Below are positions 20,526 through 38,786 of a stretch of 43,285 bases of DNA, piece by piece. Source of the stretch: Gemmatimonadales bacterium. GTDB lineage: Bacteria > Gemmatimonadota > Gemmatimonadetes > Gemmatimonadales > GWC2-71-9. The notes under the pieces were generated by a model. The model was not told the DNA's origin. It worked only from the letters and a program-made list of their open reading frames with translations, and did not search any database. Each line of letters starts with the position of its first letter. Within the stretch, counting starts at the first letter, position 1. The position numbers and the translations under genes were made by a program. The stretch spans positions 1 through 43,285 of the forward strand of contig JAZFYL010000006.1 of NCBI GenBank assembly GCA_036443495.1, given 5' to 3'.

Positions 20526-21392
20526 CTACTCGGAGCGCGGGACGTCACCTCCTGAATCGACCAGCTCCAACAACTCCTGGCAGCGTTTCCCCCACGGGTT
20601 GAAACGATTGGCCTTGAAGCCGTCGGCCCAGGTCTGGCGCGCGGCCTCTTTCTCCCCAGAGAACCATTGGGCGCGCCCCAATTCGAAGTATGCTTCGATC
20701 AGGTTTGGTCCAAGATCGAGCGTCTTGGTGAGAAACGACAGCGCGTCCTCGTACATTTCGCGCTCGAGATACACCAGGCCCAGGTAGAAATGGGCGTAGA
20801 GTGTGGCCTTGCGGTCGTTGGCCAGACGAATCGCTTTCGAAAGGTGTTCGATCGCTTCGCCGAAGATGCGCTTCTTGAGACAGATATATCCCACATTGAT
20901 GCGGGCCAGGGAGTTCGCCGGCTCTTTCATGAGCACCTTGGAGAAAGTACCCAGGGCGTCGTCGTAGTCTTCGTTGAGCATTTGCGCCCACCCCAACAAG
21001 GAGCGCGCATGTGAATCGTCGGGGGCCAGGGCCAGGGCCTTGTTCAGAGCCTCAATGGCGCTGAGGTGATCGCCCAACGATATCAAGCTCCAACCCTTCT
21101 CGATGTAGGTCGACGCCCCGAGGTGGTCCGCGTGGACCGCGGGGCGAGCGCCGGTAAACTGGGGAGCCTGCGCGCCATCGGCAGCACCGGAGCGTTGTTT
21201 GTACCGCTCGACCAGCCCGCGGATGCCCTCTTTGACGTCCGCCAATTCGGACAACGCCCCATCGACCTCCTTGAAGTAGGCGATGATTTCCCGTTTCAAG
21301 GCTTCACGTTCGGCTTGCGAATCGGCCTGCTCCAGGCGCCGTTCGATGTCCGCGTGTCTGCCTCGCAGGGCGGCCAACCACGTTTCGGTCAT
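20526..21392 (-). CDS. Protein with an N-terminal coiled coil and C-terminal TPR repeats
   Basis: N-terminal heptad-like 'RRLEQADSQAEREALKREIIAYFKEVDGALSELADVKE'. TPR units such as 'SAIEALNKALALAPDDSHARSLLGWAQ' and 'EAIEHLSKAIRLAND'. Lies 5 nt downstream of cheW. Confidence 0.75.
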   Translation of the reverse strand: MTETWLAALRGRHADIERRLEQADSQAEREALKREIIAYFKEVDGALSELADVKEGIRGLVERYKQRSGAADGAQAPQFTGARPAVHADHLGASTYIEKGWSLISLGDHLSAIEALNKALALAPDDSHARSLLGWAQMLNEDYDDALGTFSKVLMKEPANSLARINVGYICLKKRIFGEAIEHLSKAIRLANDRKATLYAHFYLGLVYLEREMYEDALSFLTKTLDLGPNLIEAYFELGRAQWFSGEKEAARQTWADGFKANRFNPWGKRCQELLELVDSGGDVPRSE

Positions 21393-21397
21393 GTAAG

Positions 21398-21880
21398 CTA
21401 CGCCTCGCTGCCGGCCTTGGCCCCGGCATCGGTCAATTGCAGTCGTTCGGTTGAACTGAACAGCTTGCCCGCGTTGAGCATGACGACCGTATCCGAGTTG
21501 TGGGACAGTAGCCCGGCGATGTACTTCGCCGCGAGTCCACGCACCATTGCCGGCGGTGCGGTGATGGCACCGGCATCCAGACGATGGACCTCCTGCACAT
21601 GATCCACCAACACGCCTACCGGGTGGTCGTCGATGCGCAAGATGATCAGCCGGGTTTCGTCCCCGATGTCCGGCGTGAAACCGAGTCGTTTGCGGAGATC
21701 AACGACCGGGGCCATGCCGTCGTCGTACGGTATTACCCCTTCCAGAAACTCCGCCGCGTTAGGCAGCGAGGTTGGAGTCGCATACCGGAGAATGCGGTCC
21801 ACCTGGCCGATCTCAAACGCGAAGAGCTGGTCGCCGACGCTGAAGATGACTACCTGAATCTCGTCGCCGCTCGTCGTCAT
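21398..21880 (-). CDS. cheW: CheW-like coupling protein
   Basis: 'QVVIFSVGDQLFAFEIGQVDRILRY', 'LEGVIPYDDGMAPVVDLRKRLG' and 'RLIILRIDDHPVGVLVDHVQEV' fit the CheW-domain pattern. Confidence 0.85.
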   Translation of the reverse strand: MTTSGDEIQVVIFSVGDQLFAFEIGQVDRILRYATPTSLPNAAEFLEGVIPYDDGMAPVVDLRKRLGFTPDIGDETRLIILRIDDHPVGVLVDHVQEVHRLDAGAITAPPAMVRGLAAKYIAGLLSHNSDTVVMLNAGKLFSSTERLQLTDAGAKAGSEA

Positions 21881-22302
21881 GATGCCATTCCGCGCTCGAT
21901 GATGGTCGGAGCCAGGGCCGCAAGGTCGATGATTGGAATGAACAGACCGTCCCGCTGCACCACGCCCACCGCTCCGGGCATGTCGTGGTCATCGGGTAGC
22001 GGGCGTACGGCATCGGTCGTGACTTCCACCGCGTGATCCACTTCCAAACAGATGCGCCGGCCATCCAAGGTTGCGACCACCGCCATCTCACCGAGGGCGC
22101 TGGGACAACCGCCACCATCCAGCGCCGCCCCCAAGTGAAAGACGGGAACCAGTCTCCCCCGTACCGGGATGACCCCACGCAAGGCGGGCGCGGTCGAAGG
22201 TACCGCGAAGGGCACTACCATATCGATAACTTCGATGAGCGGGTCCATGGCCAGCCCCACGTGCTTTTCTCCCGCCTGCACCAGCAGGAATCGGCTGTCC
22301 AT
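21877..22302 (-). CDS. Divergent CheW-like protein
   Basis: 'FLLVQAGEKHVGLAMDPLIEV', 'LRGVIPVRGRLVPVFHLGAAL', 'ICLEVDHAVEV', 'LFIPIIDLAAL'. 4-nt overlap with the downstream cheW. Confidence 0.7.
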   Translation of the reverse strand: MDSRFLLVQAGEKHVGLAMDPLIEVIDMVVPFAVPSTAPALRGVIPVRGRLVPVFHLGAALDGGGCPSALGEMAVVATLDGRRICLEVDHAVEVTTDAVRPLPDDHDMPGAVGVVQRDGLFIPIIDLAALAPTIIERGMAS

Positions 22303-22305
22303 CGG

Positions 22306-23385
22306 TCAACGTCCCGGCAGCGAGGCGAGCCAGGCGCTGGCCTCCGCGCCCAGGCGGTCGATGCCTAAGACCTCGTCTACTGCCCCAATCTCCACGGCCG
22401 CTTTCGGCATGCCGTAAATCGTCGCGCTCTCCTTGCTCTGAGCCATCCCGTACCCCCCAGCTCGGTGAATGGCCGCCAACCCCTCCGCACCATCCCGGCC
22501 CAATCCGGTCAGCACCATCCCCAAGGCCCGGTCGCCAAACACCGCCGCGACCGAATGAAAGAGCGGATCGGCCGCCGGGCGCACCCCCCATACCGTCGGC
22601 TCCTGGTTCAACACCAAGTGGGGACCGTCAGGGCCAAGTTCCACCTGCATATGATAATCGCCCGGGGCGATGTACGCCGTGTCGGTCGCGAGTGGCACCC
22701 GTTCACCACCTTCGACGACCTTGAGTCCGCTCTGTCCGTCAAGTCGCTCGGCCAGGCTCCTGGTAAACTTGGGCGGCATATGCTGGGCGATCACCACTGC
22801 GGCATCGTGCCCTGAAGAAATCCGGGGCAGGACTTCGGCCAACGCTCGCGGACCACCGGTGGACGCTGCGATTGCGAGGCAGCAGGTCGGCCGGCCGGGA
22901 ACGGCGAACAGCGGCTCAATGGCACCCACCGCGGGGCGCTGTGGCCGGGCGAGTACCGGGAGCCGATTCAGCTCCGCCGTTGCCGCGGCTTCGAGTGCCG
23001 CCAAGAGTCGGTCCGCGAACCTGTTCCTCGCGATCTCGGTGCGGTCCTCTTCCTTGGCGACCAGTTCGACCGCGCCTAGTTCGAGGGCACGGATGGCTGC
23101 GGCCGTCCCCTGCCCTGCGTAAGCACTCACCACGATGACCGGGCGGGGCAATTCCGACATGATGTAACCGATGGCCCCAAGGCCATCCAGTTCGGGCATC
23201 TCCAGATCCATGGTAATGAGATCCGGCATGAACTTGTGCAGTTTCTTGAGGGCGTCGGCTCCGTTTCGAGCGGTCGCGACGACCCGGAACCGGCCCGACG
23301 CGTCAATCACGGAACTCAGCAGCCGGCGGAAAAAGGGGCTGTCGTCGACCACCAGGACGGTGGGGCGGTCAGATACGCTCAACAC
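22306..23385 (-). CDS. cheB: Chemotaxis methylesterase/response regulator CheB
   Basis: REC domain ('[14 protein letters not shown]', '[13 protein letters not shown]') plus a methylesterase domain ('[11 protein letters not shown]', '[11 protein letters not shown]', '[11 protein letters not shown]'). Confidence 0.93.
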
Positions 23386-23854
23386 CGGTACGGACCGAGC
23401 TCACCTCCACCACACCGGAATCGACGTGAAGCCGGACCGTACGACCGAAGTCACCGCCCACGGCTTCGCCCACGATCGGTATCCGATGGGCTCCCAGTGT
23501 TTTTTGGGTCGATATGATGTTGCGTTCGCCCATCTGGATCGCCCCCGAAGCCAGCATGGCGAACATCGACGCTCCCCCAATCAGTCGGGCAGTAATCCGT
23601 CTAGGGCTGGCGCCCAACTCCGCCATTTCTTCCAGCATGGCCGGGATCGCGGTCTGGGGGAACTTTCGAAGGTTGGCGCCGCGCCTGGCCAGCGACGGGG
23701 TCGGGAGGAGAATGTGGGCCAGACCACCAACCTGAATTTTGGGATCGTGCAGGACCACCGCGACGCAGCTACCGAGCCCATAGGTCACCAGGACATCGCC
23801 GGCACATCCAACTCGGAAGTCGGCGACTTTGACCACCACGTCGTCGGCGTCCAT
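23369..23854 (-). CDS. cheD: Chemoreceptor glutamine deamidase CheD
   Basis: Starts at the ATG at 23854 ([10 protein letters not shown]), a 1-nt overlap with the cheR stop. '[14 protein letters not shown]', 'GGLAHILLP', 'LIGGASMF'. Confidence 0.88.
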
Positions 23855-24672
23855 CAAGCCACCTGGTAGATACGCTCGCGAACATCGAGCAGAGTGAAGC
23901 GCTTCTGGGCTTCGCCGAACATCGTTTCGACTTTTCCCAACACGAGAGCGCCATCGTCGGACAGGACATCCGCGAACACGGTGAACAACTGGAGCTGCGT
24001 GGGGCGATCGAAATAGATGACGACGTTGCGACACACGATCAGATCGTACGATGAGTGGAGCGGAGGATCCCGGATGAGATCGAGCTGCCGCACGTGGACC
24101 AGCGACCGGAGCCGCGGGACGACCTCATACTCTTCCCCGATGGGGCGACAATACTCGTCGCGGTGAAGCGCGGGGGCTTCATCGAACGCCGAGGCGGGAT
24201 ACCGGCCCGCTTCGGCGCGCGCCAGGCACTCGCGGTCGATGTCCGTCGCATCGATATGGACCCGATCCAGCCAGTGGCGACGGCCAAGCCGCTCCGACTG
24301 GTCGGCGAACAACATGGCCAGGGTGTGCGGCTCTTCGCCGGAGGCGCAGCCGGCGCTCCACACGCGGACATGCCCCTCACGTGCCTGGAACAAGGCCGGG
24401 AGGATGGTATCCGCCAGGCTCTCCCAAGTCTCCCGATTGCGATAGAACCGGGTCACGTTGATGGTCAGGGTGTCCTTGAGATGCTGGTACTCGTCCGGCC
24501 TTTCTCCGAGCAGCGACTGATACGCCTTGTAGGTGTGGACCCCGCAGGCGCGCATCCGGACGGCAATCCTCCGGCGCAGGCACTTTTGTTTGTATGCGTG
24601 CAACGCCAGGCCGGCAGCCTGGGAGATGGTCTGCGTCAACGCCTGGAAGCTGGCTTCATCGCCGGCGTTCAT
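23854..24672 (-). CDS. cheR: Chemotaxis protein methyltransferase CheR
   Basis: 'TINVTRFYRN', SAM-binding 'VWSAGCASGEEPHTLAMLF', 'YDLIVCRNVVIYFD'. Confidence 0.92.
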   Translation of the reverse strand: MNAGDEASFQALTQTISQAAGLALHAYKQKCLRRRIAVRMRACGVHTYKAYQSLLGERPDEYQHLKDTLTINVTRFYRNRETWESLADTILPALFQAREGHVRVWSAGCASGEEPHTLAMLFADQSERLGRRHWLDRVHIDATDIDRECLARAEAGRYPASAFDEAPALHRDEYCRPIGEEYEVVPRLRSLVHVRQLDLIRDPPLHSSYDLIVCRNVVIYFDRPTQLQLFTVFADVLSDDGALVLGKVETMFGEAQKRFTLLDVRERIYQVA

Positions 24673-26285
24673 CCGGCATTTTCCAGCATGTCGAGGTTGG
24701 CCCGAGCGAGTTGGTGTCCCGCGTTCAGCGTTGTCGCCCGCTTCCAGTATCCCTGGGCCCGCTCCCGATCGTTCCGTTTATAGGCCAGGTTCCCCAGTTT
24801 GAAGTACAGGTCGTCCCCCAAATCGGGGCTCAGTTTTGCCGCCCGCTCATACGAGGAATGGGCTTCATCGTAGTTCCCCGCACGATAGAACAGGTCGCCG
24901 AGGTTCTTGGAGATCTGCGGGATCGTGGGTTCCTGTTCGAAGGCTTTCCGCAACACCTGCTGGGCCTCGGGTACCGATCCTGCAACTTCGAGGAGCACGG
25001 CGAAGTTGTTGGCCAACACCGCCTGTTCCGGGTGGGCCTTCACCGCTTCGGCTGCGAGATCGCGGGCTGCATCGTGGTCCCCTTCCCCGGTGTGGGCCAG
25101 CGTCATGGCCCAATACCAGACGGCCGGCGGCGTACGATCGCCGAGCAGCTCCCTCGCCCTGGCCAGCCGCCCCGCGGCCACGCTGAAATCGTCTTGCTTG
25201 AGGGCCACGACCCCCCATCCGATCATGGCTCGGGGATCATCACGGGCCCGGCCGACGGCGTCGGCAAAGGTCGCTTCGGCCTCCTCCAGCCGGCCCATAC
25301 GCTCAAGGGCATATCCGAGATTGTGGAGTGCGCCCGGGCGGGGACCGCCCCGCTCCACCGCAAGCTCGAAGTGTTTGACTGCTTCCTCCCAGCGGGCCTG
25401 CTTGAGTGCGATGAGCCCCAGGTAGAAGGGTGCGCTGCCTTCCGACGGTCGCAATTCCGCAACCCGGCGGAACTCCCGCAGCCCCTCTTCCAACATGTCC
25501 GTCTTGTAGAACGCGATACCGAGGTTGCGGTGTTCTTCTACTCGCGCCTCGTTCACCCGGGGCGCCTCGCGAGTACTCGATGTTCCCACCCGCTGTACGA
25601 ACCCCGCGGTGATCAACCCGTAGAGCGCCTTGCCCAAATCGAACTCGGCGAGTCCGCTCTCCTCGAGCAGTTGGTCCACGTCGCGCTCGCCGTCGAGGTG
25701 ACAGAGGATCTGCTTCTGTTCCGGCGAAAGAGCGACTTCAGCCGAATCCAGGCGTTCCTGATCGACCGCGAAGATCAGGTCGAACGAGGGGACCTTCTTC
25801 TCGATGAGGCTCCACTCGTCGACCCGGCGGGCGCCCTCCAGCAACAGCGATTGCGGGTTGATCGCCACGACCATATCCTGCTCTGGTTGGACGCCAGCTT
25901 CGAAGTTGAAGGTCCCGGCGTGCCAGGTGAACAGGAAATACACGGCTTCTTCGATTTGCAGCCGTATGTATTCCTCCAACTCGGAGCGCTCGATCACCCC
26001 TTGCTCAACGAGAATCTCTCCGAGTTTCTTGTCGCGGAAGTTGCCCTGCAGCTCGAGGGCCTCGGTTTGCTGCTCGGTGGTGATGCGGCCGCTGGCGACC
26101 AGGATATCGCCCAGCCGATCGCGACGGTTCACGATCGAGGCGTAGCTGATGAGCCCCTCATCGAAGTAGATGTATCCGAAGTTCTGGCGGTCGGCCACCG
26201 CCAGGCAGCCGGTCTTCTTCCCCAAGGACAGTAGCTGAATGACGTCGGGGAGGCTCGCTTCCTTCAGGCTGCCTTTGATCGCCAT
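24669..26285 (-). CDS. PATAN/DUF4388-like N-terminal domain fused to TPR repeats (paralog 1)
   Basis: Start taken at the ATG at 26285 ([30 protein letters not shown]...YFDEG), which matches the DUF4388/PATAN signature as I remember it. It includes a helical insert ('RLGDILVASGRITTEQQTEALE...KLGEILVEQGVIERSELEEYI'). The C-terminal half is TPR ('EGLREFRRVAELRPSEGSAPFYLGLIAL' and others). Confidence 0.8.
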   Translation of the reverse strand: MAIKGSLKEASLPDVIQLLSLGKKTGCLAVADRQNFGYIYFDEGLISYASIVNRRDRLGDILVASGRITTEQQTEALELQGNFRDKKLGEILVEQGVIERSELEEYIRLQIEEAVYFLFTWHAGTFNFEAGVQPEQDMVVAINPQSLLLEGARRVDEWSLIEKKVPSFDLIFAVDQERLDSAEVALSPEQKQILCHLDGERDVDQLLEESGLAEFDLGKALYGLITAGFVQRVGTSSTREAPRVNEARVEEHRNLGIAFYKTDMLEEGLREFRRVAELRPSEGSAPFYLGLIALKQARWEEAVKHFELAVERGGPRPGALHNLGYALERMGRLEEAEATFADAVGRARDDPRAMIGWGVVALKQDDFSVAAGRLARARELLGDRTPPAVWYWAMTLAHTGEGDHDAARDLAAEAVKAHPEQAVLANNFAVLLEVAGSVPEAQQVLRKAFEQEPTIPQISKNLGDLFYRAGNYDEAHSSYERAAKLSPDLGDDLYFKLGNLAYKRNDRERAQGYWKRATTLNAGHQLARANLDMLENAG

Positions 26286-28315
26286 CAGCGCCACTCCTCG
26301 ATAACCCGACCGCCCGCGTCGGGCCATGTCCAGATCATCTTCTCGCGACTTCGCGGTCCACCGGCAGTCGGTGCCACGATACCGCTGGACCGTACCCGTC
26401 GGCGGTCACTGGGGCGTTTGCTGGGCGGACCCTCGAGGATCTCCCGAGCGAGCGCTGCCGAGGGCACGAGTTCCTGGACCTCGGCGGCGGTGAGCACGCG
26501 CTGCACCAAACCATGCAGGCTGCGCACTGATTCCACCGGACGGCTCGCCAGGTAGGCCGACAACTCGGCATCCTCGAGATCGAGTTTGGCCCGCAACAGG
26601 CGGGCGGCCACTTCCTGGCGAATTTCCCGTTCCGGAGGCGGCAACTCGACCACCAGTCCTCCCTCGAGTCTGGTCAGGAGCCGCGGCTCCACCCCAGTGA
26701 GCTCCGCCAGCGGCACGGTGGAGGTAAAGACCATTTGCCGCTCATCGGCCAGGAACTTGTTGAACAGGATGAACAGCATCTCCTGGGTGCGGTCTTTGTT
26801 AGCCACGAGGTGGACATCGTCGAGCAGAAAGGCACTGGCGTTTTCGTAGCGGGCCCGCCACTGGGTGACGCGCTCGTTGTCGACGGCATCAATCAGTTCG
26901 GCGATGAAATCGTGCGCATCGAGGCAGGCGACCCTGCTGCCCGCCTCCTTGGCCAGCTCGTTGCCGATACCGTGAAGGAGGTGCGTTTTCCCCCGACCGC
27001 TGCCACCGATGATGACCAGGGGGTTGTAGCGAACCCCTGGCTCCTCCGTCACGGCCAGGCCGCTCCGGAGGGCGACCCGATTGCCGCCGCTTTCGAAGAG
27101 TTCTTCCAATTTCCACAGGGGTGACGGGCCTGGCGGAGGCGTCGTCCCCGCCCTCGCCTCGGCGACGAGCCCCTCGGCAACCGCAACCTTATCAGGGTCA
27201 CGGAAGACCGCCGACCCGGCCACAGCGGATTCCATCTCCTCCGCCTCGTGGGCAAGGGCCTGGAGCCGGCCAACGTCGGTCTCAAAGGCCTCCAGCACGG
27301 ATTCGAGATCATCGGAGAGTTCGCCCTCGAGCAACAGTTCGAGCCGGGTGGTACGGTACCCCTCCCCTTCCCAGCGCATGATGGCCGCCGCCACCTTGGA
27401 TCGCCACGACTCGACCTGGTCCGAGACAGTGGCAACTACCTCAGACAGGAAGCTCCCGAATTCGTCGCCGAGGTTCGTTTCTTCGTCCCCCTCTTCGGCA
27501 GTCGCGACCGCCGGCGCTTCCGTCGCGCCCGACTCTTGCTGAGTTTCGTCCCCGACAGGCAACGTCGTCGCACGATCGATCGCTTGGGGGACCCCCGGTA
27601 TGTTCTTCAGGAAGGCGACCGCCTCGATAGCGCCGATGGGCGTATCGGAGACCGCCTGCTGCGCAATGAGGCGGTTTAGCGCGCCGATCAACTCACGCAC
27701 GTTGGTGAACTGCAACCCGGCCACCGCGTCGACGACATCCTTGTCGAATGTCACGTCCCGCTCCTGAGCCCGCCGTGCCAGAATGGCCGCACGGGTCTCG
27801 TAGTCCGGGGTGGCGATGTCCACGACGAGCCCACCGGCGAAGCGCCGAATCAACCGGTCGTCCAGGGCTTCGATGTCCACCGGGGGACGGTCGCTGGTCA
27901 GAACGATCTGGCGCTGCTCGGTTTGCATCACGTCGGTGAGGCGGATGAGTTCCGCCTGCATCTCCCGGCGGTGCGCCAGAAACTGCACGTCGTCCAACAG
28001 CAATAAGTCTGCGTCGCCCACGTGCCGGCGGTAGGCCTCCCCCTGCCCAGCCGCCACAGCGGTATGGAACGCCTCGACGAAATCATCCAGGGTGAGATAC
28101 TCGACCCGAAGATTCGAGTTGATTTCCAGCGCCCGGTGTCCGATCGCCATGAGCAGATGGGTTTTGCCCAGGCCCGGATCGGCGTAGACGAACAGGGGGT
28201 TGTAGCCCGTGCCGGGAGACTCGGCCACACTGCGGGCGGCGGTCACGGCCAGCCGATTCGCGGCACCCACGACCATACTGTCGAACCTGAAGTACGGATG
28301 GAGGTGATCGCTCAC
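26285..28315 (-). CDS. Tandem double DnaA-type AAA+ ATPase with no DnaA domain I and no DNA-binding domain IV
   Basis: Module 1: '[15 protein letters not shown]', Walker A '[10 protein letters not shown]', Walker B 'LLLLDDVQF', 'VLTSDRPP', '[19 protein letters not shown]', '[12 protein letters not shown]'. Module 2: '[13 protein letters not shown]', '[11 protein letters not shown]', 'FLLDDVHLV', 'VFTSTVP', '[19 protein letters not shown]', '[12 protein letters not shown]'. An acidic linker of about 190 aa separates them. The GTG start overlaps the mglA stop (GTGA). Confidence 0.85.
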
Positions 28316-30585: not shown

Positions 30586-31726
30586 GCCGTTCTTGCATTG
30601 CCTCTTCCAGCACCAGAGCCGCTTCGAGGTAGCGTGTTACAGCCTCCGTGTGGCCCTTCTCGTGTGGATTGCGCCCGGGTAACTCCAGCCACTGCTGCCA
30701 CACCAACCCTGCCTCCGCGAATTCCCCGGCCCCCACCAGGGCCACACCCAGCAGGCGATAGCCCATCGCCAACTCGGAGTCCAACTCCACGGCATCCCGC
30801 AGAGTCTCCACCGCTTCGGCAAACCGGTTGGCTGCCACTAGCACCCGACCCAAGATCAGGTAGGCGACGCTGTCATCAGGATAGCCCGCGACCGCATCGC
30901 GAGCAGTGTCCTCGGCCGCCCCCACATCAGCGACCGATAGGTGATCCTCGGTTCGCGCCACCAAGACCGCCAATTCTCGATCTTCGGCCTGCGTCACGGC
31001 GGTCTTGGGATCCTCAATGACGATAATACCGGCCGAGGCCAACCCGAAGAGAACCTTGGCGACCTCGAATTCCGAGCGTCCCAATTGGTCGGCGATCTCT
31101 CGAACATCGGCCTCACCGCCGACCGCGGACAGGAGGGCCCACTCGTCCGGTAGCAAATCAATTACGGCGGGCCCATTGCCATCACCGGCATTGAGCCTCG
31201 GTACGACCCCGAGGTGTGGAATCTTGGACTCGAATCGGCTCCACTCGTCGATTCGCCTCGCAGCCTCCATGAGCAGCGACTCGGTGGGGATCCGATAGTG
31301 TGCCTCTGCGGGAGACTGCCCCGGCTCACTTTCCTCGAAGGAGAAATAGCCTTCCGACCAACTCATGAGCTCGAAGATGACTTCTTCGACTTGATCACTG
31401 ATCTGTCGGTCGAGCTCTTTCCGTGATATCGCCCCGATTTCCACCAACAACTCGCCGAGGCGCTGGCCATCGCGACTCGCCTGCATGTCGACAGCGCGGT
31501 TGACGTCGTCGGCACTGACCTTACCAGACCTGATAAGCAGCGATCCGAGCGGATGGGGGTTGCTCTTGATTTCCGCTCCGACCACGGCGCCACCCTCGAA
31601 GTAGACCGTGCCGTCGTTCTGCCGGAGGTCGGAGGTCACGACGAGGACACCAGTCTTCCGCCCCAGGTCGAGTAACTGGAACACATCGTGAATGTGCAGT
31701 TCCTTCAGCGGGCCTTCGATCGTCAC
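30578..31726 (-). CDS. PATAN/DUF4388-like N-terminal domain fused to TPR repeats (paralog 2)
   Basis: 'MTIEGPLKELHIHDVFQLLDLGRKTGVLVV...VYFEGG' plus a helical insert ('PLGSLLIRSGKVSADDVNRAVDMQ...RLGELLVEIGAISRKELDRQISDQVEEV'). C-terminal TPR units ('SVAYLILGRVLVAANRFAEAVETLRDAVELDSE'). Confidence 0.8.
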   Translation of the reverse strand: MTIEGPLKELHIHDVFQLLDLGRKTGVLVVTSDLRQNDGTVYFEGGAVVGAEIKSNPHPLGSLLIRSGKVSADDVNRAVDMQASRDGQRLGELLVEIGAISRKELDRQISDQVEEVIFELMSWSEGYFSFEESEPGQSPAEAHYRIPTESLLMEAARRIDEWSRFESKIPHLGVVPRLNAGDGNGPAVIDLLPDEWALLSAVGGEADVREIADQLGRSEFEVAKVLFGLASAGIIVIEDPKTAVTQAEDRELAVLVARTEDHLSVADVGAAEDTARDAVAGYPDDSVAYLILGRVLVAANRFAEAVETLRDAVELDSELAMGYRLLGVALVGAGEFAEAGLVWQQWLELPGRNPHEKGHTEAVTRYLEAALVLEEAMQERHD

Positions 31727-31729
31727 GAC

Positions 31730-34414
31730 TTACCCGGACGTTTCAAGGAAGATGTGAGCCAGATCCTTGGCCGACCGTAGCTGCGCTCTGGCACGCTGGG
31801 CGTATTCGCTCGCGGGATCCAGCATGATGACTCGCTGCCAGGCACCCATGGCATCGTCGTATTCCTTGGCCGTCAGCTTGATCGTCCCGATGTGGAACAA
31901 CGCCGCCAAGTGGTCGGGCTCGAACCGCAGGATGCGCTCGAGTGCATGGCGCGCCTCGGCTTTCCTGCCGTCCTCGATCAGTACTTCCGCCAAGAGCATC
32001 AGGGCATCGAATTCGTAGGGATCCAGCGCCAGCCAATCGACCAGCAGGTGCACCGCGGCACGACTCGATTCCTGCTCTTTCAGCAAGCGGGCAAGCGCCA
32101 GGGTCGCTTCGACGTAGGTCGGCAGAAGGTTCAGCGCCTTCTCGTAGGCCAGCCGAGCACCGGTGTAGTTCTGCCGAGCCTGTTCCAACCCACCCAGCTC
32201 GAACCAGACCTGCACCAGCCCGGAATCGAGCTGCAGTGCCGCCTGGTAGGCCTCCAGCGCGCCATCAAAGTCGCCCAGATGGGTCGCCACCTTGGCCTGC
32301 AATTGAGAGAGATCCGGTCTACCCGGGGCCAGCAGCTGAGCCTGCTTGAGATGGTCCAGGGCCGGCACCGGTTGTCCCAGCGCCAGCCTGGCCTGGGCAC
32401 ACGCCACGAGGCCCTCGACATCATCGCGGGAACGCCGGGCCAGCTCTTCCACGAGGCCGCCGGCTTCCTCGGGACGCCCCAGGGCCAGTAACGCGCGGAC
32501 CTCGCCGCGCAGCGCCTCGGTCTCCTCGGGATCATGCTCGCGGCTGCTGCGGTAGCGTTCCAAGGCCTCGCCGTAGAACCCGCGCTTCATGAAAATGTCG
32601 CCCAGCAGAACATTGGCCTTGACGCGTGAGGCCCCTCGCGCAACCGCTCGATTCAATTCCGCCGTTGCCAGCTCCAGCAAGCCCTTGTCGATGTAGTCTC
32701 GGGCCAGAACGTACGGCGCGTTGACATCGGCGACGGCATCCTCCGGCTCGGGTTCCGGAACGAGTTCGGCAAAGATGTCGTCCAGCACACCTTCGTCGAG
32801 TGTGAAGGCATCCCCGATCTCCTCGCCAGCGACATCGCCCGACAGCTCGGGCACGATGCTGATCGTCGGGTCTTCGTACTGCAGGTCGATTGTGAGACTG
32901 AATTTCTGGGGCACGTAGTAGGCTTCGAGTTCCAGAGCACGCTTGGTTTCGCGCAGGGCACCGTCGAAGTCTCCCAGCTGGCTCAGGGTGAAGCTCAGGT
33001 TGTAGTGGGCCGGGGCATGGTTTGGATCCGCCTCCACCGAGCGGGCGAAGGCGTTCTTGGCGTCGGAGAAGCGCTTCAACTCCATCAGCACCATTCCCAC
33101 TCCGTTCCAGGCGATCGCGTTAGCCGGGGTATCGGCGAGGATCTGCCTGTAGGCCTCCAGCGCCGGCTGAAAACGTTTGTGCTGGAAGAGTTCCAACGCC
33201 AAGTTGAGCTTGGCCGCCACCACCTGACGGTTGCTCTCGACTGCCGTCCGAAACGCCTTCAACGCGTCCTCGGGGTCCTCCTGGTCGGCCAGCAGCACCC
33301 CGAGATTGTTCCAGGCCAAGGCGTACCGGGAATCGTGAGAGATGGCATTCTCGTAAGACACTCGGGCCAGTTCCCGCTGTCCGGCCTGGTGCAAACAGAC
33401 GCCCCGTTCGTTCCACAACTTGGGAGAATCTTCGAATTCACGGACCAGCGAATCGTAAAGGTTGAGCGCCGCACTGAAGTCGTGCCGGAGCAGATCCACC
33501 TCGGCAATGGCCTCCAGGACCAGGCGCCTCTCTTCGCCACTGTCCAGGGCGAGCCGGTACTCCCGGAGAGCCTCGGCGAAGTATCCCTTCTGCCGGAATG
33601 CGAGGCCGAGGTTGTAGTGCGCCAAGGCCCTTCCTTCAGCGATCTGCGGCCGTTTGTGGTCCCCCTCTTTGTCTTCCGGCCGTCTGTCGGTGCCTGAGGT
33701 GAGCGTCAGGTTGGCCTGTGCCCGGGCCAAGGTGGGATTCAGTTGCACGGCACGTCGGGTGGCCGCCCGGGCATCTTCGTGGAGGCCCATGTCGCCATAG
33801 ACGAAAGCCACCAGGTAGTGCGCGTCGGCGTATTCGGGGTTGAGCTTGATTGCCGCCTTCAGTTCATCCAACGCCTGCTCGTTCAGGCCTCGATTATAGA
33901 GGGCTTCGCCATGGTAGAACCGCGCCAGGGAACTCTGGGGCTCGATCCGGCACGCTTCCTCAAACCAATCCGAAGCGGCCTCGACCTGGCCGCGCGCCTT
34001 TTCAGCCATCCCCAGTTGAATGATGGTCGGCGTATCGTGGGGCTGGCGGGACAACAAAGCATCGAACTCGGCGATGGCTTCGTCATAGTGACCCAGTGAG
34101 GCGTAGGCCCGGCCGAGTTTCCACCGGGCCTCATGGTCCTCCGGTTGCTCCCGCAGTTTTTCCTGGAGGCCCGCTACGAGGGAATCGTAATACCCGGACG
34201 AGGTATAGGCGGCCTCCAGGTTGTCCTGGGCCACCTGCATCTTGGGGTCCAATTCGAGGGCACGCGTGAACTCGGCAATGGCCTCGGGGATGAGTCGCTT
34301 CTGATAGTAGAGAACGCCCAGGTTGTTGTGGGCACCGGCGTCGGATGGATCGATACGATCGGCAAAGGAGCGGAGGACCGCTAAATCGCGTTCCGAGATC
34401 GCCGAGACAGCCAT
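31730..34414 (-). CDS. Large (894 aa) all-TPR protein
   Basis: Starts at the ATG at 34414 (MAVSAISERDLAVL), 4 nt after the cheC stop. Contains many consecutive canonical TPR units, for example 'AHNNLGVLYYQKRLIPEAIAEFTRALELDPK' and 'ALAWNNLGVLLADQEDPEDALKAFRTAVESN'. Confidence 0.8.
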   Translation of the reverse strand: MAVSAISERDLAVLRSFADRIDPSDAGAHNNLGVLYYQKRLIPEAIAEFTRALELDPKMQVAQDNLEAAYTSSGYYDSLVAGLQEKLREQPEDHEARWKLGRAYASLGHYDEAIAEFDALLSRQPHDTPTIIQLGMAEKARGQVEAASDWFEEACRIEPQSSLARFYHGEALYNRGLNEQALDELKAAIKLNPEYADAHYLVAFVYGDMGLHEDARAATRRAVQLNPTLARAQANLTLTSGTDRRPEDKEGDHKRPQIAEGRALAHYNLGLAFRQKGYFAEALREYRLALDSGEERRLVLEAIAEVDLLRHDFSAALNLYDSLVREFEDSPKLWNERGVCLHQAGQRELARVSYENAISHDSRYALAWNNLGVLLADQEDPEDALKAFRTAVESNRQVVAAKLNLALELFQHKRFQPALEAYRQILADTPANAIAWNGVGMVLMELKRFSDAKNAFARSVEADPNHAPAHYNLSFTLSQLGDFDGALRETKRALELEAYYVPQKFSLTIDLQYEDPTISIVPELSGDVAGEEIGDAFTLDEGVLDDIFAELVPEPEPEDAVADVNAPYVLARDYIDKGLLELATAELNRAVARGASRVKANVLLGDIFMKRGFYGEALERYRSSREHDPEETEALRGEVRALLALGRPEEAGGLVEELARRSRDDVEGLVACAQARLALGQPVPALDHLKQAQLLAPGRPDLSQLQAKVATHLGDFDGALEAYQAALQLDSGLVQVWFELGGLEQARQNYTGARLAYEKALNLLPTYVEATLALARLLKEQESSRAAVHLLVDWLALDPYEFDALMLLAEVLIEDGRKAEARHALERILRFEPDHLAALFHIGTIKLTAKEYDDAMGAWQRVIMLDPASEYAQRARAQLRSAKDLAHIFLETSG

Positions 34415-34418
34415 TGCC

Positions 34419-35039
34419 TCAGCCGAGACGGATAGCGTCGAAGATCGCGCGGAGAGACGCCAGGTCGGGCAGGAGTAAGAAGTGAGCCGAGACCTGGTCT
34501 TGCGCCTCCTCGAAATGGAATCGGGTTTCGACACACAAGACGAAATCCCGGTCGCTTCCAAAGGTGAGGTATGTGGACGTCAACACGGCCGCTGCGTAGT
34601 CCACGACCAAGCTCGGGACTGACGGCACCAGCATCATTCCCAGGAAGTCGCTCAACGCGTTCAGGTAGGCGCTACTGAGAATGTTGCCCACTTCCTTGAG
34701 CCCGGATTCTTCCATTTCGCCCAATGTCGTGGTCGTGCCGACGGGCCGGCGCATGATCAGATCGCACACCCTGTGCGCGCCCTCGGAGGGGAACATCAGC
34801 AGCGTCCGCCCGGTCAGGTCTCCCATCATCTGCATGAGGACCGCTGCAATGACGTCGTCGGGGTCACCCAACACAGCCGCCACTTCCTCCAGGGGGGTGA
34901 CGTTCACAGTGGGGACGTTGATCATGATCTTCCGATCAACCATCTGCGAGAGAGCGGTCGCCGCGTGGCCCGCGCCGATGTTCGCCACTTCCCGCAAGGC
35001 GTCCAATTGCAGTGGTTCGAGGTCCCGCACGTCGTCCAT
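34419..35039 (-). CDS. cheC: CheC-type CheY-P phosphatase
   Basis: Starts at the ATG at 35039 (MDDVRDLEPLQ). Has two E-x2-N active-site motifs, 'DALREVANIGAGHAATALS' and 'SGLKEVGNILSSAYLNALS'. Confidence 0.8.
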   Translation of the reverse strand: MDDVRDLEPLQLDALREVANIGAGHAATALSQMVDRKIMINVPTVNVTPLEEVAAVLGDPDDVIAAVLMQMMGDLTGRTLLMFPSEGAHRVCDLIMRRPVGTTTTLGEMEESGLKEVGNILSSAYLNALSDFLGMMLVPSVPSLVVDYAAAVLTSTYLTFGSDRDFVLCVETRFHFEEAQDQVSAHFLLLPDLASLRAIFDAIRLG

Positions 35040-35049
35040 CACGCCTCCA

Positions 35050-36930
35050 CTAGACCAAGGCCGCGGCGTCGAGAATGAGCGCCGGTGTGCCATCCGCCAG
35101 GATAGTAGCCCCGCTGAAATAGGGTGGCATTCCCCGGGGCGGATCGAACGGCTCCACCACAATTTCCATCTGTCCCAGCAGGGCGTCAACAAGAAGCGCG
35201 GAGCGCCGCTCCCCGACCTCCAGGATCACACACGGCCGGCGGTCCGGCACATGATTGCCCTTCTGGCCCACCACGGTCCGTAGATCGGCGGTGCTCAGGA
35301 CCTCGTCCCGCAAGACGACCGAATCCCGGTCATGGACCTCGGCGCGGGTCTGCTCGTTGTACTCGACCGTTTCGGCCACGAAGGCCATCGGTAAGACGTA
35401 CCGCTCATCGCCCGCCTGGGCCAGCAATGCCCTAAAGATAACGAGCGTCAGGGGCAGCCGGAGAACGAAAGTCGTGCCTTGCCCCAACTCGGACTGAATA
35501 GCCACGGAGCCGCCCAGGCCGCGGAGCTTCGTCAGCACGACGTCGATACCCACGCCACGCCCCGACACACTGGTCACCGCCTTGGCAGTGCTGAACCCGG
35601 AACGGCCGAGCACCTGGAGCAGGAGGTCGTCGTCCAATGCTTCGACGTCGTCGGGCACCGCTCCGGCATCCCGTGCCTTGGCCAAAACAGCCCCCCGGTC
35701 GATGCCCCGACCGTCGTCCTCGATCCGGAATACAACGCTGTCACGCTCGCGCATACAGCTGATGGTCAACCGCCCCTCTGCCGGTTTGCCTGCCGCGGCA
35801 CGTTCCTCACTCGACTCGATGCCGTGATCGACAGCGTTTCGCAACAGGTGAAGGACGGGATCGCCGATCTCATCCAGCAGGGAACGGTCGACCTCGATGT
35901 CGCCACCCTCCACGGTCAGGGTCACGCGCTTGCCCAGCTCCCTGGCGAGATCACGCACCGCCCGCGGGAACCGGTCGAACACCTGCCAGACCGGAGTCAT
36001 CCTGGCACCGATGACCTCGGTCTGAATGTCTGTGACCAGACGGTTGATCCGGGTACTCAGACCGGCGATTTCGCTTTCGGGATCCTTGGCCGTGAGTTCG
36101 ATCAACCGATTCCTGGCGACCACCAATTCGCCGACGTGGTTCATCAGCAGGTCCAGGCGCCGCCGATCGATACGGATCATGTTGTGGGCGCGCCGAACGG
36201 CCTCCTCGCCGGCGGTGGGCCCTCGGCCCCGGGCGTCGTCACCGATGACGACTTGGTCGACATCGCCAGCCGATCGAATGGCCTCCTCCACCGCACTGTC
36301 GGGCCGGGTGGTCTCCAGCCAAAAAGAAATCGTCCCGGCAAACCCCTCGTGCTCGAGGGTCTCCCTGGATGGCTCCAGGTCGTCGACTATGCCCAGTTTC
36401 TCGACCTGGGCCAGGACGATCATGGCCCGGACCCCGGGCATGGCGGCGGCCCCATCGATGGTGACCCGCACGGGTCGGCTCTTGGCGCTGCGACTCCGTT
36501 TGCGATCTGGTGGGCCACCCGGCGATGCCGGTAGGGGCATCTCGGCGGTCCCGGGAGCCGGCACGATGGCATCGAGTCGCTGCCCCACGTCGCTGAAGTC
36601 GAGGGACTCGTCGTTCCCCGCAGCGGCCGGTTCTACGCCCCCATCCAGGCCGTCAACCGCTTCGGTCAGGATATCCACCAGGGCGGTGTTTGGCGGCAGC
36701 GCCCCACTCCGCACCTGCTCGAGCACGTTCTCCGCGCGGTGGGCCAAGTCGGTGATGTGGGCGTACCCCATCATCGCGGCCATACTCTTGATGGTGTGCA
36801 TGGCCCGGAACAAGGCGTTTAGGGCATCCGGGTCGGCTGGATTCCGTTCTAGTTGAGCCAGATGCTGGTTGCAGGTCCCGAGATGTTCCCGGCTTTCACT
36901 GAGGAAGAGTGCTGCGTACCGGGCGTCCAT
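35050..36930 (-). CDS. cheA: Chemotaxis histidine kinase CheA
   Basis: Hpt 'LFRAMHTIKSMAAMMG'. Dimerisation region 'IRIDRRRLDLLMNHVGELVVARNRL'. HATPase 'LLRNAVDHGIE', 'DDGRGID', 'SGRGVGIDVV'. C-terminal CheW-like 'ALLAQAGDERYVLPMAFV'. Confidence 0.93.
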   Translation of the reverse strand: MDARYAALFLSESREHLGTCNQHLAQLERNPADPDALNALFRAMHTIKSMAAMMGYAHITDLAHRAENVLEQVRSGALPPNTALVDILTEAVDGLDGGVEPAAAGNDESLDFSDVGQRLDAIVPAPGTAEMPLPASPGGPPDRKRSRSAKSRPVRVTIDGAAAMPGVRAMIVLAQVEKLGIVDDLEPSRETLEHEGFAGTISFWLETTRPDSAVEEAIRSAGDVDQVVIGDDARGRGPTAGEEAVRRAHNMIRIDRRRLDLLMNHVGELVVARNRLIELTAKDPESEIAGLSTRINRLVTDIQTEVIGARMTPVWQVFDRFPRAVRDLARELGKRVTLTVEGGDIEVDRSLLDEIGDPVLHLLRNAVDHGIESSEERAAAGKPAEGRLTISCMRERDSVVFRIEDDGRGIDRGAVLAKARDAGAVPDDVEALDDDLLLQVLGRSGFSTAKAVTSVSGRGVGIDVVLTKLRGLGGSVAIQSELGQGTTFVLRLPLTLVIFRALLAQAGDERYVLPMAFVAETVEYNEQTRAEVHDRDSVVLRDEVLSTADLRTVVGQKGNHVPDRRPCVILEVGERRSALLVDALLGQMEIVVEPFDPPRGMPPYFSGATILADGTPALILDAAALV

Positions 36931-36934
36931 GGAG

Positions 36935-37297
36935 TTATCCGAGCACGCGCTGGACGGCCTCGAGGACTCGGGACGGCTGGAAGGGCTTGACGACGAAGTC
37001 CTTGGCGCCGGCTTGAATGGCCTCCACGACGAGGGCCTGCTGCCCCATCGCGCTGCACATGAGGACCTTGGCCTCGGGATCCTTTTGGCAGATCTCGCGT
37101 ACCGCCTCGATGCCTCCCATATCGGGCATCACGATGTCCATGGTCACGAGGTCGGGCTTGAGTTGATCGTAGCGTTCAACCGCTTCCACGCCGGTTTCGG
37201 CCTCGCCGATGATTTCGAATCCCGCTTGGGTGAGGATGTCGCTGATCATGGTTCGCATGAAGATGGCATCATCGCACACGAGCACGGTGTGACTCAC
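36935..37297 (-). CDS. cheY: Single-domain response regulator CheY
   Basis: 'VLVCDDAIFMR', 'LVTMDIVMPDMGG', 'VLMCSAMG', 'DFVVKPF'. GTG start with GGAGG 7 nt upstream. Confidence 0.92.
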   Translation of the reverse strand: MSHTVLVCDDAIFMRTMISDILTQAGFEIIGEAETGVEAVERYDQLKPDLVTMDIVMPDMGGIEAVREICQKDPEAKVLMCSAMGQQALVVEAIQAGAKDFVVKPFQPSRVLEAVQRVLG

Positions 37298-37348
37298 GAA
37301 GCGTCCTCCAACAATTCAGGCGAGCAGTTCTACGGGGACCTACTGACC

Positions 37349-37786
37349 TCAGGTTCCCATAATGGGCCGCAGCAACTCTTCGAGATCGAGGATCACGAAC
37401 GGGGCTTCCTGATGCCAACCCATCGCCTTCACGATGCGGGCATCGACTCCCGGAAGCGCCTCCCGATTCTCCACCTCGGCCAACGGGACAGCTACCAGAT
37501 CGACGACACGCCCCACGAGCAGGCCGCAACGCCGATCGAACACCTCCAATACCACCACAGCGCCTTCGTGAGCCGGATTCGGCTCCAGATCCAGCAGCCG
37601 GTGCGCGTCCACCACCGTAAGTAGCGCGCCTCGGATATTAACCAAGCCGTCAACAGAGGGTGGCGCGCCAGGCAGGCGGGTGGCCGGCATCGGTGACAGC
37701 ACCTCTCGCGTCACTTCGGCCGGCACGGCGCAGACCAAGCTACCAATTTCACAAACGAGGACCCGCTCCGCAGCTACACTAGGCAT
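37349..37786 (-). CDS. cheW: CheW coupling protein
   Basis: Start taken at the ATG at 37786 (MPSVAAERVLVCEIGSLVCAVPAEVTREV). 'VDGLVNIRGALLTVVDAHRLL', 'CGLLVGRVVDLV'. Overlaps the rluD stop by 8 nt. The alternative start at 37831 is less likely. Confidence 0.8.
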   Translation of the reverse strand: MPSVAAERVLVCEIGSLVCAVPAEVTREVLSPMPATRLPGAPPSVDGLVNIRGALLTVVDAHRLLDLEPNPAHEGAVVVLEVFDRRCGLLVGRVVDLVAVPLAEVENREALPGVDARIVKAMGWHQEAPFVILDLEELLRPIMGT

Positions 37787-38786
37787 GTCTATTAAAGAAC
37801 CGAAGATACCGAAGGGGCTCCTGTGGGGCAACTCGATCCGGTGGAGTCAGCGACGATTCGAGCGCCGGCCAAAGATCGCCGGGCCACTCGGCACGAAAAT
37901 CCAGCAAGGCGTCGGTCACCGGGTGCCGAAACTCCAGACGCGCTGCGTGCAAAGCCTGGCGGGGCGTCCGACGCTCGATCGTCTCCGCTTGCCGCCTCCC
38001 GACCCCCGACATTCGCCGGCTCCCGCCGGCACCATAGACCGGATCTCCCACCACCGGATGCCCGACATGGGCCAGGTGGACGCGGATTTGGTGTGTCCGA
38101 CCCGTATCGAGCTCGATCCGGAGCAACTCGGTGACCGTGAACCGCGCCACGACCGCAATCCGCGTCCGTGCCTCCCGCCCGTCAACCGCAACCACCATGC
38201 GCTTCCGATCCCTCGTATGGCGCGCAATGGGCGCGTCGACGAGCAGCGCCTCGGTGTCGAAGTGCCCCCACGTTAGCGCCGCGTAGGTCCGTCTGATGCG
38301 ACGGTCGCTCAGGGCGCGGGACAGTCGACGGTGGGCAATATCCGTCTTGGCCACCAACATCAGGCCAGAGGTGTCCCGATCCAGTCGGTGAACGATGCCC
38401 GGACGGCCCTCTGCCCCACCCGCCAATGTCGTCCCGCGTGCCACCAGGGCGTTGACCAAGGTGTCATCCCAGTGGCCCGGGGCCGGATGGACCACCAGTC
38501 CGGCAGGTTTTTCGATGACGGCCAGATCGTCATCTTCGTAGACGACGGTCAGCGGGATGTCCGCCGGGGCCAGAGTCCGTGGCGGATCGACTTCCGGGTA
38601 GGTCAGGCTGACCTGATCGCCCCGCTGCAACACACGGGACGCCCGTGCCGTCGTGCCGTTCACTGCGACATGCTTGCCAGCGATCAGGCGAGCCGCCGCC
38701 GTTCGCGACAAAGCGAGCTGATCGGCCAGATAGCGATCGAGCCGCTCTGAGTCAGCCAGGACGGTGAATTCCACCGCGTGGACCAC
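37779..38786 (-). CDS. rluD: 23S rRNA pseudouridine synthase, RluD family
   Basis: S4 domain 'RLDRYLADQLALSRTAAARLI', catalytic 'HRLDRDTSGLMLVAK', 'GRTHQIRVHLA'. Start proposed at the GTG at 38786, just after the lspA stop. 38774 is an alternative. Confidence 0.85.
   Translation of the reverse strand: MVHAVEFTVLADSERLDRYLADQLALSRTAAARLIAGKHVAVNGTTARASRVLQRGDQVSLTYPEVDPPRTLAPADIPLTVVYEDDDLAVIEKPAGLVVHPAPGHWDDTLVNALVARGTTLAGGAEGRPGIVHRLDRDTSGLMLVAKTDIAHRRLSRALSDRRIRRTYAALTWGHFDTEALLVDAPIARHTRDRKRMVVAVDGREARTRIAVVARFTVTELLRIELDTGRTHQIRVHLAHVGHPVVGDPVYGAGGSRRMSGVGRRQAETIERRTPRQALHAARLEFRHPVTDALLDFRAEWPGDLWPALESSLTPPDRVAPQEPLRYLRFFNRHA

Follow-up and report, generated by a model that had tools for sequence, protein, structure and literature searches.

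The window analyzed here is a 43,285-nt stretch of contig JAZFYL010000006.1 (GenBank assembly GCA_036443495.1), which belongs to a Gemmatimonadales bacterium of the phylum Gemmatimonadota. It contains a train of 18 consecutive minus-strand genes (20526-37786, based on the open reading frame (ORF) listing and the chosen start codons), in which chemosensory (che) genes flank a middle section coding for the Ras-like polarity GTPase MglA, for Roadblock, TPR and PATAN proteins, and for an ATPase related to the replication initiator DnaA. The train may encode a chemosensory-to-MglA polarity device, which serves a polar surface machine, type IV pili being the likeliest, and is organized around a new ATPase/PATAN core; this is the account that we favor, with a confidence that falls somewhat short of even. 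In its terms the products would form three modules of one coupled unit: the Che phosphorelay with its adaptation enzymes; MglA, MglB and Roadblock proteins together with TPR and PATAN-TPR proteins; and the core, composed of the ATPase and a second PATAN-TPR protein (PATAN-TPR2).

The sequence-only reading of this DNA had allowed for the possibility that the gene order is unique to one genome. It is instead conserved across Gemmatimonadota: wherever the contig is long enough the same 18-gene order is found, in more than 100 species-level genomes of the phylum. Three genome-collection scans, seeded with the DnaA-like protein and distant relatives of it and taking the best 80 loci each, gave 219 loci in total; an alignment of 15 distant ATPase relatives proved too diverse as a seed, and narrower sets were used. 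Gene order was mapped by tblastn synteny, with a few loci counted twice from one contig, such that the counts are slightly inflated. The scanned loci are labelled Gemmatimonadota (Gemmatimonadales, Gemmatimonas or Longimicrobiales), apart from a few of an "uncultured bacterium" and two odd contigs, and among the best 80 loci of each ATPase-seeded scan the system is seen in one phylum only. The two exceptions are short or odd contigs of metagenome-assembled genomes, labelled Acidimicrobiia (L003) and Solirubrobacterales (L099), which bear a typical Gemmatimonadota train; L099 equals the Gemmatimonadales contig L100 in length, match coordinates, identity and gene order. Both labels are probably binning errors in public assemblies.

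The genes of the train are tightly packed. The largest intergenic gap is 51 nt (cheW1-cheY) and start/stop overlaps occur at nine junctions, exactly as had been read from the sequence at the outset, and the overlaps then quoted are indeed present: GTGA at 28312-28315, ATGA at 29728-29731, and 1-nt overlaps (TGATG or TAATG) at 26285, 29381 and 23854. The junctions which join the modules are equally close among the relatives. The distance from cheC to the large TPR gene has a median of 4 nt (111 loci) and is at most 30 nt in 91% of cases; from mglA to the ATPase gene the median is -4 nt (more than 100 genomes; at most 30 nt in 100%), from the ATPase gene to PATAN-TPR2 it is -1 nt (at most 30 nt in 96%), and from PATAN-TPR2 to cheR, which share an ATGA overlap in the window, it is -4 nt (134 loci; at most 30 nt in 95%). 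Beyond the train, the small TPR gene and the MA-peptidase gene are separated by a median of 53 nt, and the peptidase gene and the next TPR gene by 144 nt, both being within 30 nt in 0% of loci. The neighboring junctions outside the train always measure at least 44 nt, and the downstream boundary is always looser than the module junctions. Across genomes, the che parts and the middle section thus appear to remain translationally coupled to each other. The recurrence of this order with such short junctions in so many species goes well beyond chance. Since they were kept tight while the proteins diverged to about 35-60% identity, selection on co-expression, and not mere inherited order, is suggested, and the gene spacing points to a single transcript and to co-translation. 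A consensus promoter and terminator scan of the train found no sigma-70-like site and only weak intragenic hairpins, the consensus being uninformative for this phylum.

The upstream limit of the unit needs to be redrawn. The train had been taken to begin at cheW1, yet the stop codon of rluD (37779..38921, minus strand), an upstream housekeeping gene for a pseudouridine synthase (Pfam PseudoU_synth_2 and S4), overlaps the cheW1 start by 8 nt in the window. The median is likewise -8 nt across 95 related loci, and the overlap is seen in about 90% of the train-bearing genomes. The unit therefore reaches further upstream than first drawn: judging from the sequence, the coupled unit probably starts at or before lspA-rluD, with rluD sharing the transcript.

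The train is flanked by ileS-lspA-rluD upstream and by genes for an MA-type peptidase and a TPR protein, followed by mraW...ftsA-ftsZ, downstream. This backbone (ileS-lspA-rluD...pepMA-TPR-mraW-dcw) is conserved across the phylum, and the train constitutes a variable insert within it. Of the 117 loci that extend from rluD as far as the peptidase gene, 55 contain the full 18 genes, and about 14 are complete except for cheW2 or cheW3, both poorly conserved, or the like. In another 42 or 43, mostly from Longimicrobiales, a minimal pair composed of the DnaA-like gene and PATAN-TPR2 alone occupies the same chromosomal site. One locus (L204) retains the whole MglA/TPR/PATAN/ATPase block with zero che genes, as checked in the ORFs, and three others (L048, L116 and L133) show partial che loss, L048 and L133 keeping only cheY. 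These variants reveal that the modules are separable, and the initial description of the Che pathway as hard-wired to the polarity module was too strong. Full trains occur in both major orders, and on this ground we infer that the minimal form is most simply a reduction of the full train. An otherwise minimal locus (L173) has a Roadblock/MglB-like gene (9561-9989) directly upstream of the DnaA-like gene and may be an intermediate in such a reduction series. Minimal loci (L142-L186, L197, L210; for example L168, 9992-15501) also have, after the peptidase gene, a gene for a receiver protein of about 270 residues, 27-35% identical to CheY, which was not detected at that position in full-train loci.

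The gene at 26285..28315 (minus strand) codes for a tandem DnaA-domain-III AAA+ ATPase of 676 residues (Pfam Bac_DnaA, 293 bits in 2 stretches). The protein is composed of an N-terminal AAA+ module, a disordered linker, a four-helix middle domain (residues ~285-390), a C-terminal AAA+ module and a conserved C-terminal tail. The NCBIfam DnaA profile is matched twice and only over its positions 102-337, namely domain III, while domains I, II and IV are absent and no match to Bac_DnaA_C appears (Pfam/NCBIfam). The N-terminal half is closest to domain III of Bacillus subtilis DnaA (Foldseek, target-normalized TM-score of 0.92 to 8bv3). In the AlphaFold 2 (AF2) model (mean pLDDT 78.6, pTM 0.41, the relative domain orientation being unreliable), the helical middle domain is the sole folded domain besides the two AAA+ modules. 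The tail (26285-26420 in the window, the last ~45 codons) is predicted to be disordered (pLDDT below 50), and its residues REKxxWxWP...R.IEEWR are invariant family-wide, the minimal Longimicrobiales form included. It resembles a docking peptide, whose partner may be the TPR domain of PATAN-TPR2. An exhaustive search against 50%-identity cluster representatives recovered the same N-mid-C layout in most of the full-length proteins among the best 150 matches, at identities down to ~33%, and the family comprises many 50%-identity clusters. Word-indexed protein searches with the ATPase and PATAN-TPR2 returned close Gemmatimonadota orthologs, which were used for alignments only.

The ATPase shares with DnaA and Hda the initiator-clade AAA+ fold and keeps Walker A and B, sensors I and II and the box VII arginine finger, but it differs from both in its two copies of domain III, the family-specific helical domain and the PATAN-TPR gene partner. 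Its identification as a DnaA initiator was rejected, as domain III is present and domains I and IV are absent; in Gemmatimonas phototrophica the true dnaA (RS00010) is encoded away from the train ATPase. An assignment to Hda was also rejected, given a TIGR03420 score (151.5) that falls short of the cutoff (194.8), the tandem layout and an N-terminus without the clamp motif, which we take to be QL[SD]LF/QLxLPL in Hda-type proteins.

The natural variants bear directly on how the two ATPase halves may work. Among the 147 mglA-containing loci, Walker A, Walker B, sensor II and the box VII arginine finger persist in both halves. In the 40 minimal loci the N-half ATP site is intact, although its B-motif arginine is lost, whereas the C half has lost Walker A (Lys replaced by Ala, Gly or Pro), Walker B (DD replaced by HG) and sensor II, but retains both Arg545 (40/40) and Arg549 (40/40). 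On sequence grounds, this pattern is what characterizes an asymmetric AAA+ pseudo-dimer, one half of which would mainly donate the arginine finger. The ATPase gene adjoins that of PATAN-TPR2 in every locus type, and the two proteins are, to judge by their distribution, a self-sufficient core. The C-half site decays only in loci without MglA and che, which ties the second ATP site to those modules; by the same pattern, it is predicted to be needed only where they are present.

The two PATAN proteins, PATAN-TPR1 (30578..31726, minus strand, 382 residues; Pfam DUF4388, 115 bits) and PATAN-TPR2 (24669..26285, minus strand, 538 residues; Pfam DUF4388, 124 bits, plus TPR), both end in TPR repeats and lack a receiver domain (no Response_reg match). 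For the AF2 model of PATAN-TPR2, Foldseek returns TPR proteins only. Both match the MshE-related NCBIfam profile c-di-GMP_motif (NF053729, cutoff 38), at 39.7 bits for PATAN-TPR1 and 43.6 bits for PATAN-TPR2, where c-di-GMP denotes cyclic di-guanosine monophosphate. The hallmark of MshEN is a tandem of 24-residue motifs, RLGxx(L/V/I)(L/V/I)xxG...Q, and the matches fall in the alpha-helical insert of the PATAN domain (residues 59-112 and 57-110, respectively). In PATAN-TPR2 the residues R57-L-G59...Q80 and K/R87-L-G89...Q110 are nearly invariant among 184 orthologs; for PATAN-TPR1, 98 of 132 orthologs have Pro in place of the Arg of motif I, and motif II is intact. The PATAN proteins may thus be considered candidate c-di-GMP receptors. 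That the PATAN insert resembles the N-terminal region of pilus and secretion ATPases (PilB) has been described before; a statement that PATAN binds c-di-GMP was not found in the literature searched, which covered few subscription journals.

The genes of the GTPase module are likewise on the minus strand. MglA (28312..28914, 200 residues) gives a full-length alignment to Myxococcus xanthus MglA 5ymx (246 bits, E 2e-72, residues 1-196) and also aligns to Thermus thermophilus MglA. The P-loop, the intrinsic Arg53, Thr78 (Asp in Ras), the catalytic Gln82 and the NKxD motif are kept in about 144 of 147 orthologs. By this alignment and these residues the protein is a bona fide MglA, group 1-like and not group 2. 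The protein encoded directly upstream (28920..29381, 153 residues), the presumed GTPase-activating protein (GAP) of MglA, scores below cutoffs in NCBIfam (MglB, 37 bits) and Pfam (Robl_LC7, 18.4 bits); its best PDB matches are all MglB, from M. xanthus (6h5b, E 6e-9) and T. thermophilus, and it is classed here as a divergent MglB on the basis of these matches. Further upstream are a stand-alone Roadblock/LC7 protein (29381..29731, 116 residues; Pfam Robl_LC7, 36.7 bits, with Roadblock proteins as top PDB matches) and a TPR-Roadblock fusion (29728..30585, 285 residues), whose TPR_19 and TPR_2 matches are above cutoff and whose Robl_LC7 match (19.4 bits) is below the cutoff of 23; the fusion gene is conserved in position. 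Beyond PATAN-TPR1 lies the large TPR protein (31730..34414, 894 residues; at least 10 repeats of Pfam TPR families), a candidate MglA effector or scaffold. Neither RomR nor RomX is seen within the 43-kb window. A Streptomyces conservon (CvnA-D) was considered for this module and rejected, in view of the absence from the train of a CvnA-type kinase and a DUF742 protein and of the group 1-like character of MglA.

The chemosensory genes, also on the minus strand, are divided between the two ends of the train. Upstream are cheW1, for a CheW-like coupling protein (37349..37786; Pfam CheW, 84.8 bits; 145 residues from the ATG at 37786 or 160 from a TTG at 37831), cheY, for a single-domain response regulator (36935..37297; Pfam Response_reg, 107.6 bits; top NCBIfam match CheY_Halo), cheA, for a five-domain histidine kinase with Hpt, P2, dimerization, HATPase_c and CheW-like domains (35050..36930; Pfam), and cheC, of the CheY-P phosphatase family (34419..35039; Pfam CheC, 78 bits in two stretches). 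Downstream follow cheR, for the methyltransferase (23854..24672; Pfam CheR, 162 bits, and CheR_N), cheD (23369..23854; Pfam CheD, 88 bits), cheB, for the methylesterase with its receiver domain (22306..23385; Pfam CheB_methylest, 199 bits, and Response_reg), cheW2 (21877..22302; Pfam CheW, 59 bits), which is the least conserved gene of the train and is undetected in some relatives, and cheW3 (21398..21880; Pfam CheW, 96 bits). The coupled unit ends with a gene for a small TPR protein of 288 residues (20526..21392; Pfam TPR families), 60-86% identical across the phylum. These identities rest on Pfam and NCBIfam profile matches, together with PDB sequence matches for MglA, MglB, Roadblock and the ATPase, and every one of those proposed beforehand was confirmed by Pfam/NCBIfam, the assignment of MglB being weak in Pfam and backed by the PDB matches. 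No MCP domain was found by Pfam in the 18 train genes or in the flanking genes scanned, and the presence of CheR, CheB and CheD implies that chemoreceptors are encoded elsewhere. Nearly every real gene of the window, from ileS to ftsZ and an M23 peptidase gene, is on the minus strand, and outside the train the window consists of housekeeping genes.

The phosphorylation residues of CheY and CheA are conserved: D9, D10, D54, S82 and K104 of CheY are invariant in 95 orthologs, as is the Hpt residue His45 of CheA in 101. CheY is 78-92% identical across the phylum and is the most conserved gene product of the train, most others being 35-65% identical. In L048 and L133, both of which lack cheA, it is kept at 63-81% identity, which suggests that CheY has partners beyond CheA. 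CheA matches the NCBIfam CheA_Halo model (390 bits) better than the Escherichia coli type (313 bits), and with its single Hpt and no REC domain it does not display Frz-type or Tfp-type features. The proposal that the train is the sole, flagellar Che pathway was rejected, as a second CheA of G. phototrophica (RS15835), encoded away from the train, is reported to be induced together with flagellar genes (PMC9862903). A separate flagellar che pathway therefore probably exists; Gemmatimonas cells carry a single polar flagellum.

Comparison with known systems places the train between several of them. The Frz-MglA/MglB(/MglC, RomR-RomX)-SgmX system of M. xanthus likewise has a Che pathway, MglA, a Roadblock GAP, additional Roadblock paralogs and TPR proteins as likely effectors, but its loci are separate, whereas the train is one coupled operon. 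Furthermore, the CheA of the train is not fused to a receiver, CheY is a plain protein and no FrzCD-like receptor is present, while the two PATAN-TPR proteins and the tandem DnaA-like ATPase have no Frz/Mgl counterpart. The cyanobacterial Tax/Pix systems, with PatA-type PATAN-REC proteins which bind PilB1 and PilC, resemble the train in having PATAN within a che-like operon near CheY and in the PilB-related insert; in the train, however, PATAN is fused to TPR and the receiver is a separate CheY, and the cyanobacterial operons lack MglA, MglB and the ATPase. A third parallel is offered by ParC and ParP, whose array-positioning genes lie within the che operons of Vibrio and Pseudomonas. There too a nucleotide-dependent, positioning-type module is located mid-operon, but it consists of a ParA-type ATPase and the CheW-like ParP, as opposed to the MglA, Roadblock, PATAN and DnaA-like proteins found here.

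The middle section had been described as having no characterized counterpart, a claim that holds in part. PATAN-MglB-MglA neighborhoods have been catalogued in Chloroflexi, Chlorobi and Aquificae (Makarova et al. 2006, as cited in later work; Wuichet and Sogaard-Andersen 2014, Table S2), and GAU_1409 of Gemmatimonas aurantiaca is entered in the latter as "PATAN>MglA>-PATAN>". These surveys did not flag che genes and called the neighborhoods variable, with no mention of a conserved 18-gene unit, and the DnaA-like gene corresponds to their unnamed "-". Neither the embedding among che genes nor the DnaA-like partner came up in the literature searched. Nor did that search, which extended to few subscription journals, return a description of the full architecture, the AAA+ gene or the DnaA-like/PATAN pair, and the family of tandem DnaA-III ATPases with a PATAN-TPR partner appears to be undescribed.

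Clues to the output come from characterized homologs and from distant relatives of the ATPase. In Synechocystis, PATAN domains bind PilB1 and PilC and by themselves suffice for a reversal of phototaxis, and in M. xanthus MglA with the TPR protein SgmX is reported to stimulate type IV pilus formation (PMC7519303). Among the cluster representatives of the ATPase family, two giant proteins combine MshEN, DnaA-III, a coiled coil of ~1300 residues and another DnaA-III, and one further protein combines TPR with DnaA-III. Such fusions unite in one chain the modules which in the window are distributed over the ATPase and its PATAN-TPR partner. The giants were traced to two genomes of Ca. Fermentibacteria, a sister phylum (L220, 3397-22556; L221, 5104-15342), where three consecutive MshEN/DnaA-III genes are located between pilD and pilB-pilT-pilC in an order conserved in two species. 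The Fermentibacteria proteins share with the train the DnaA-domain-III modules, including a two-copy protein, and the MshEN-type module, but their MshEN is fused to the ATPase, the coiled-coil spacer is huge and there are no MglA or che genes nearby. One of the fusions has 1993 residues, its two DnaA-III modules being ~1300 residues of coiled coil apart, and the pilus cluster (pilD...tonB_C-like, pilB, pilT, pilC) also holds an MshEN-only protein. A metagenome scan with the TPR-DnaA-III fusion returned mostly ordinary dnaA and five full-length loci; the fusion in one of these (L228) has 1365 residues, ~1100 of them TPR fused to one DnaA-III, and its gene lies just upstream of those for a SHOCT protein and mreB-mreC-rodA.

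Cultured Gemmatimonas strains carry a shorter version of the train. In G. phototrophica it spans 1873383-1886675 of NZ_CP011454 and comprises cheW (RS07755), a regulator (RS07760) and a DUF4388 protein (RS07780), then four genes and cheB (RS07805) (PMC9862903 supplement); it matches the scanned locus L202 as well as the above-mentioned G. aurantiaca entry. These short trains lack cheR and the three Roadblock genes and have a longer MglA (229 residues in G. aurantiaca) directly after PATAN-TPR1; an MglB-MglA pair is encoded elsewhere (GAU_1115). G. phototrophica also encodes PilT, PilT/U and a GspE/PulE ATPase (PMC9862903 supplement). A time-lapse study from 2024 describes the "buds" of Gemmatimonadota as inert appendages and the cells as dividing by fission, with polar spherical appendages and unusual placement of the division plane. 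Budding as a rationale for a polarity system was rejected accordingly, and the unusual biology of the pole and division plane was kept as a weaker point.

In the reading that we favor, receptor arrays would control CheA, and CheC would reset phosphorylated CheY (CheY~P). The target of CheY~P, in trans, would be either the PATAN-TPR proteins or the Roadblock/MglB GAP complex, CheY and PATAN-TPR representing a split version of the cyanobacterial PATAN-REC regulators, and this input would set the site of MglA-GTP accumulation, namely the active pole. MglA-GTP and the TPR scaffolds would in turn recruit or activate the polar machine, for which the type IV pilus motor PilB/PilC is the likeliest candidate. 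In complex with PATAN-TPR2, the DnaA-like ATPase would serve as an ATP-dependent oligomeric switch or scaffold, its C-terminal tail may dock into the TPR domain of its partner, and c-di-GMP would provide a second input through the PATAN insert. We infer all of these interactions, as well as the output of the scheme. A bolder proposal, possible though doubtful, is that the tandem ATPase represents a new class of ATP-driven switch or scaffold, derived from a replication initiator and obligately paired with a c-di-GMP-sensing PATAN-TPR protein in polarity or pilus control, whereby the first site, with the arginine finger of the second half in trans, would run a basal cycle and the second, present only together with the MglA and Che inputs, would integrate the GTPase and chemosensory signals.

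Several observations weigh against a polarity device for pili. No pil gene was found within 10 kb of the train in the 219 Gemmatimonadota loci, and we know of no report of twitching motility for the phylum. The minimal pair persists without MglA and che, always between rluD and the dcw region, and the core may thus serve a process other than motility. The TPR-DnaA-III fusion (L228, 7662-16352; unrelated low-GC metagenome contig Ga0315274_10001004, GC 33%) adjoins mreB-mreC-rodA and not pili. CheA and CheY, moreover, look F1-like, their best NCBIfam matches being of archaeal/F1 type, and are accompanied by CheC and CheD, and F1-type che pathways usually drive flagella or archaella. An alternative is that the GTPase/ATPase module positions the chemoreceptor array, or the single polar flagellum, at the cell pole or partitions it, in the manner of ParC/ParP or FlhF/FlhG, with Che as ordinary flagellar chemotaxis. 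The F1-like CheA and CheY, the location of the module mid-operon between cheC and cheR, the three cheW genes, the conserved coupling, the high conservation of CheY (78-92%), the single polar flagellum of Gemmatimonas cells and, as general knowledge, the che operons of Vibrio and Pseudomonas with their positioning ATPases are all in line with such a role. It is nevertheless quite unlikely: it is another CheA that is reported to be induced with the flagellar genes in G. phototrophica, L204 has the MglA module without any che gene, about 42 loci have the ATPase/PATAN pair on its own, the characterized homologs of MglA, PATAN and MshEN are not known to position arrays or flagella, and Pfam found no ParA-like or FlhF/FlhG-like proteins in the train.

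Another alternative is that the ATPase and PATAN-TPR2 regulate the cell cycle or morphogenesis, through DnaA and the origin, the division plane or the pole, and are fed by MglA and Che signals. The N half is nearest to DnaA domain III and keeps Walker A and B, sensor II, the box VII arginines and the ssDNA-contact (B-motif) arginine; no other part of the train is as persistent as the pair, which always lies between ileS-lspA-rluD and the mraW-ftsZ cluster; and a TPR-DnaA-III fusion is found beside mreB-mreC-rodA elsewhere. Odd division planes and polar appendages occur in the phylum, the appendages being absent in L. terrae, whose order typically has the minimal pair only. Yet the ATPase has neither the DNA-binding domain IV nor domain I, its N-terminus bears no Hda-type clamp-binding motif, the N-half B-motif arginine is lost in the minimal pair, and the context in Fermentibacteria is a pilus cluster. 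The proximity to the dcw cluster, from which a role in division had been considered plausible, is itself conserved, but it is weak evidence for such a role, since the whole flanking backbone is conserved as well and the adjacency may be passive. In Firmicutes, ileS-lspA-rluD likewise neighbors the dcw/divIVA region. On balance, a cell-cycle regulator is unlikely. Finally, the train may be a historical juxtaposition, whereby a polarity module was inserted into an ancestral che operon and was kept by inertia, the modules being functionally unconnected. Their independent loss is compatible with this view, and since co-directionality and synteny extend over all 43 kb of the window throughout the phylum, the order could reflect descent. 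However, the module junctions remain at most 4 nt despite protein divergence to 35-50% identity, with neighboring non-train junctions of at least 44 nt, and the second ATPase site decays only where MglA and che are gone; mere juxtaposition is therefore very improbable.

The train brings together, in one operon, a candidate parts list for the link between chemosensory pathways and MglA, a link that is still under debate in Myxococcus with its scattered parts. The natural deletion variants show which parts depend on which. The large family of tandem DnaA-domain-III proteins suggests that the ATPase module of DnaA has been reused outside replication, and PATAN domains come into view as possible receptors for c-di-GMP. 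As cultured strains possess a variant of the train, these ideas are directly testable in Gemmatimonadota, a phylum abundant in soil, with a poorly understood cell biology and puzzling polar appendages and division patterns.

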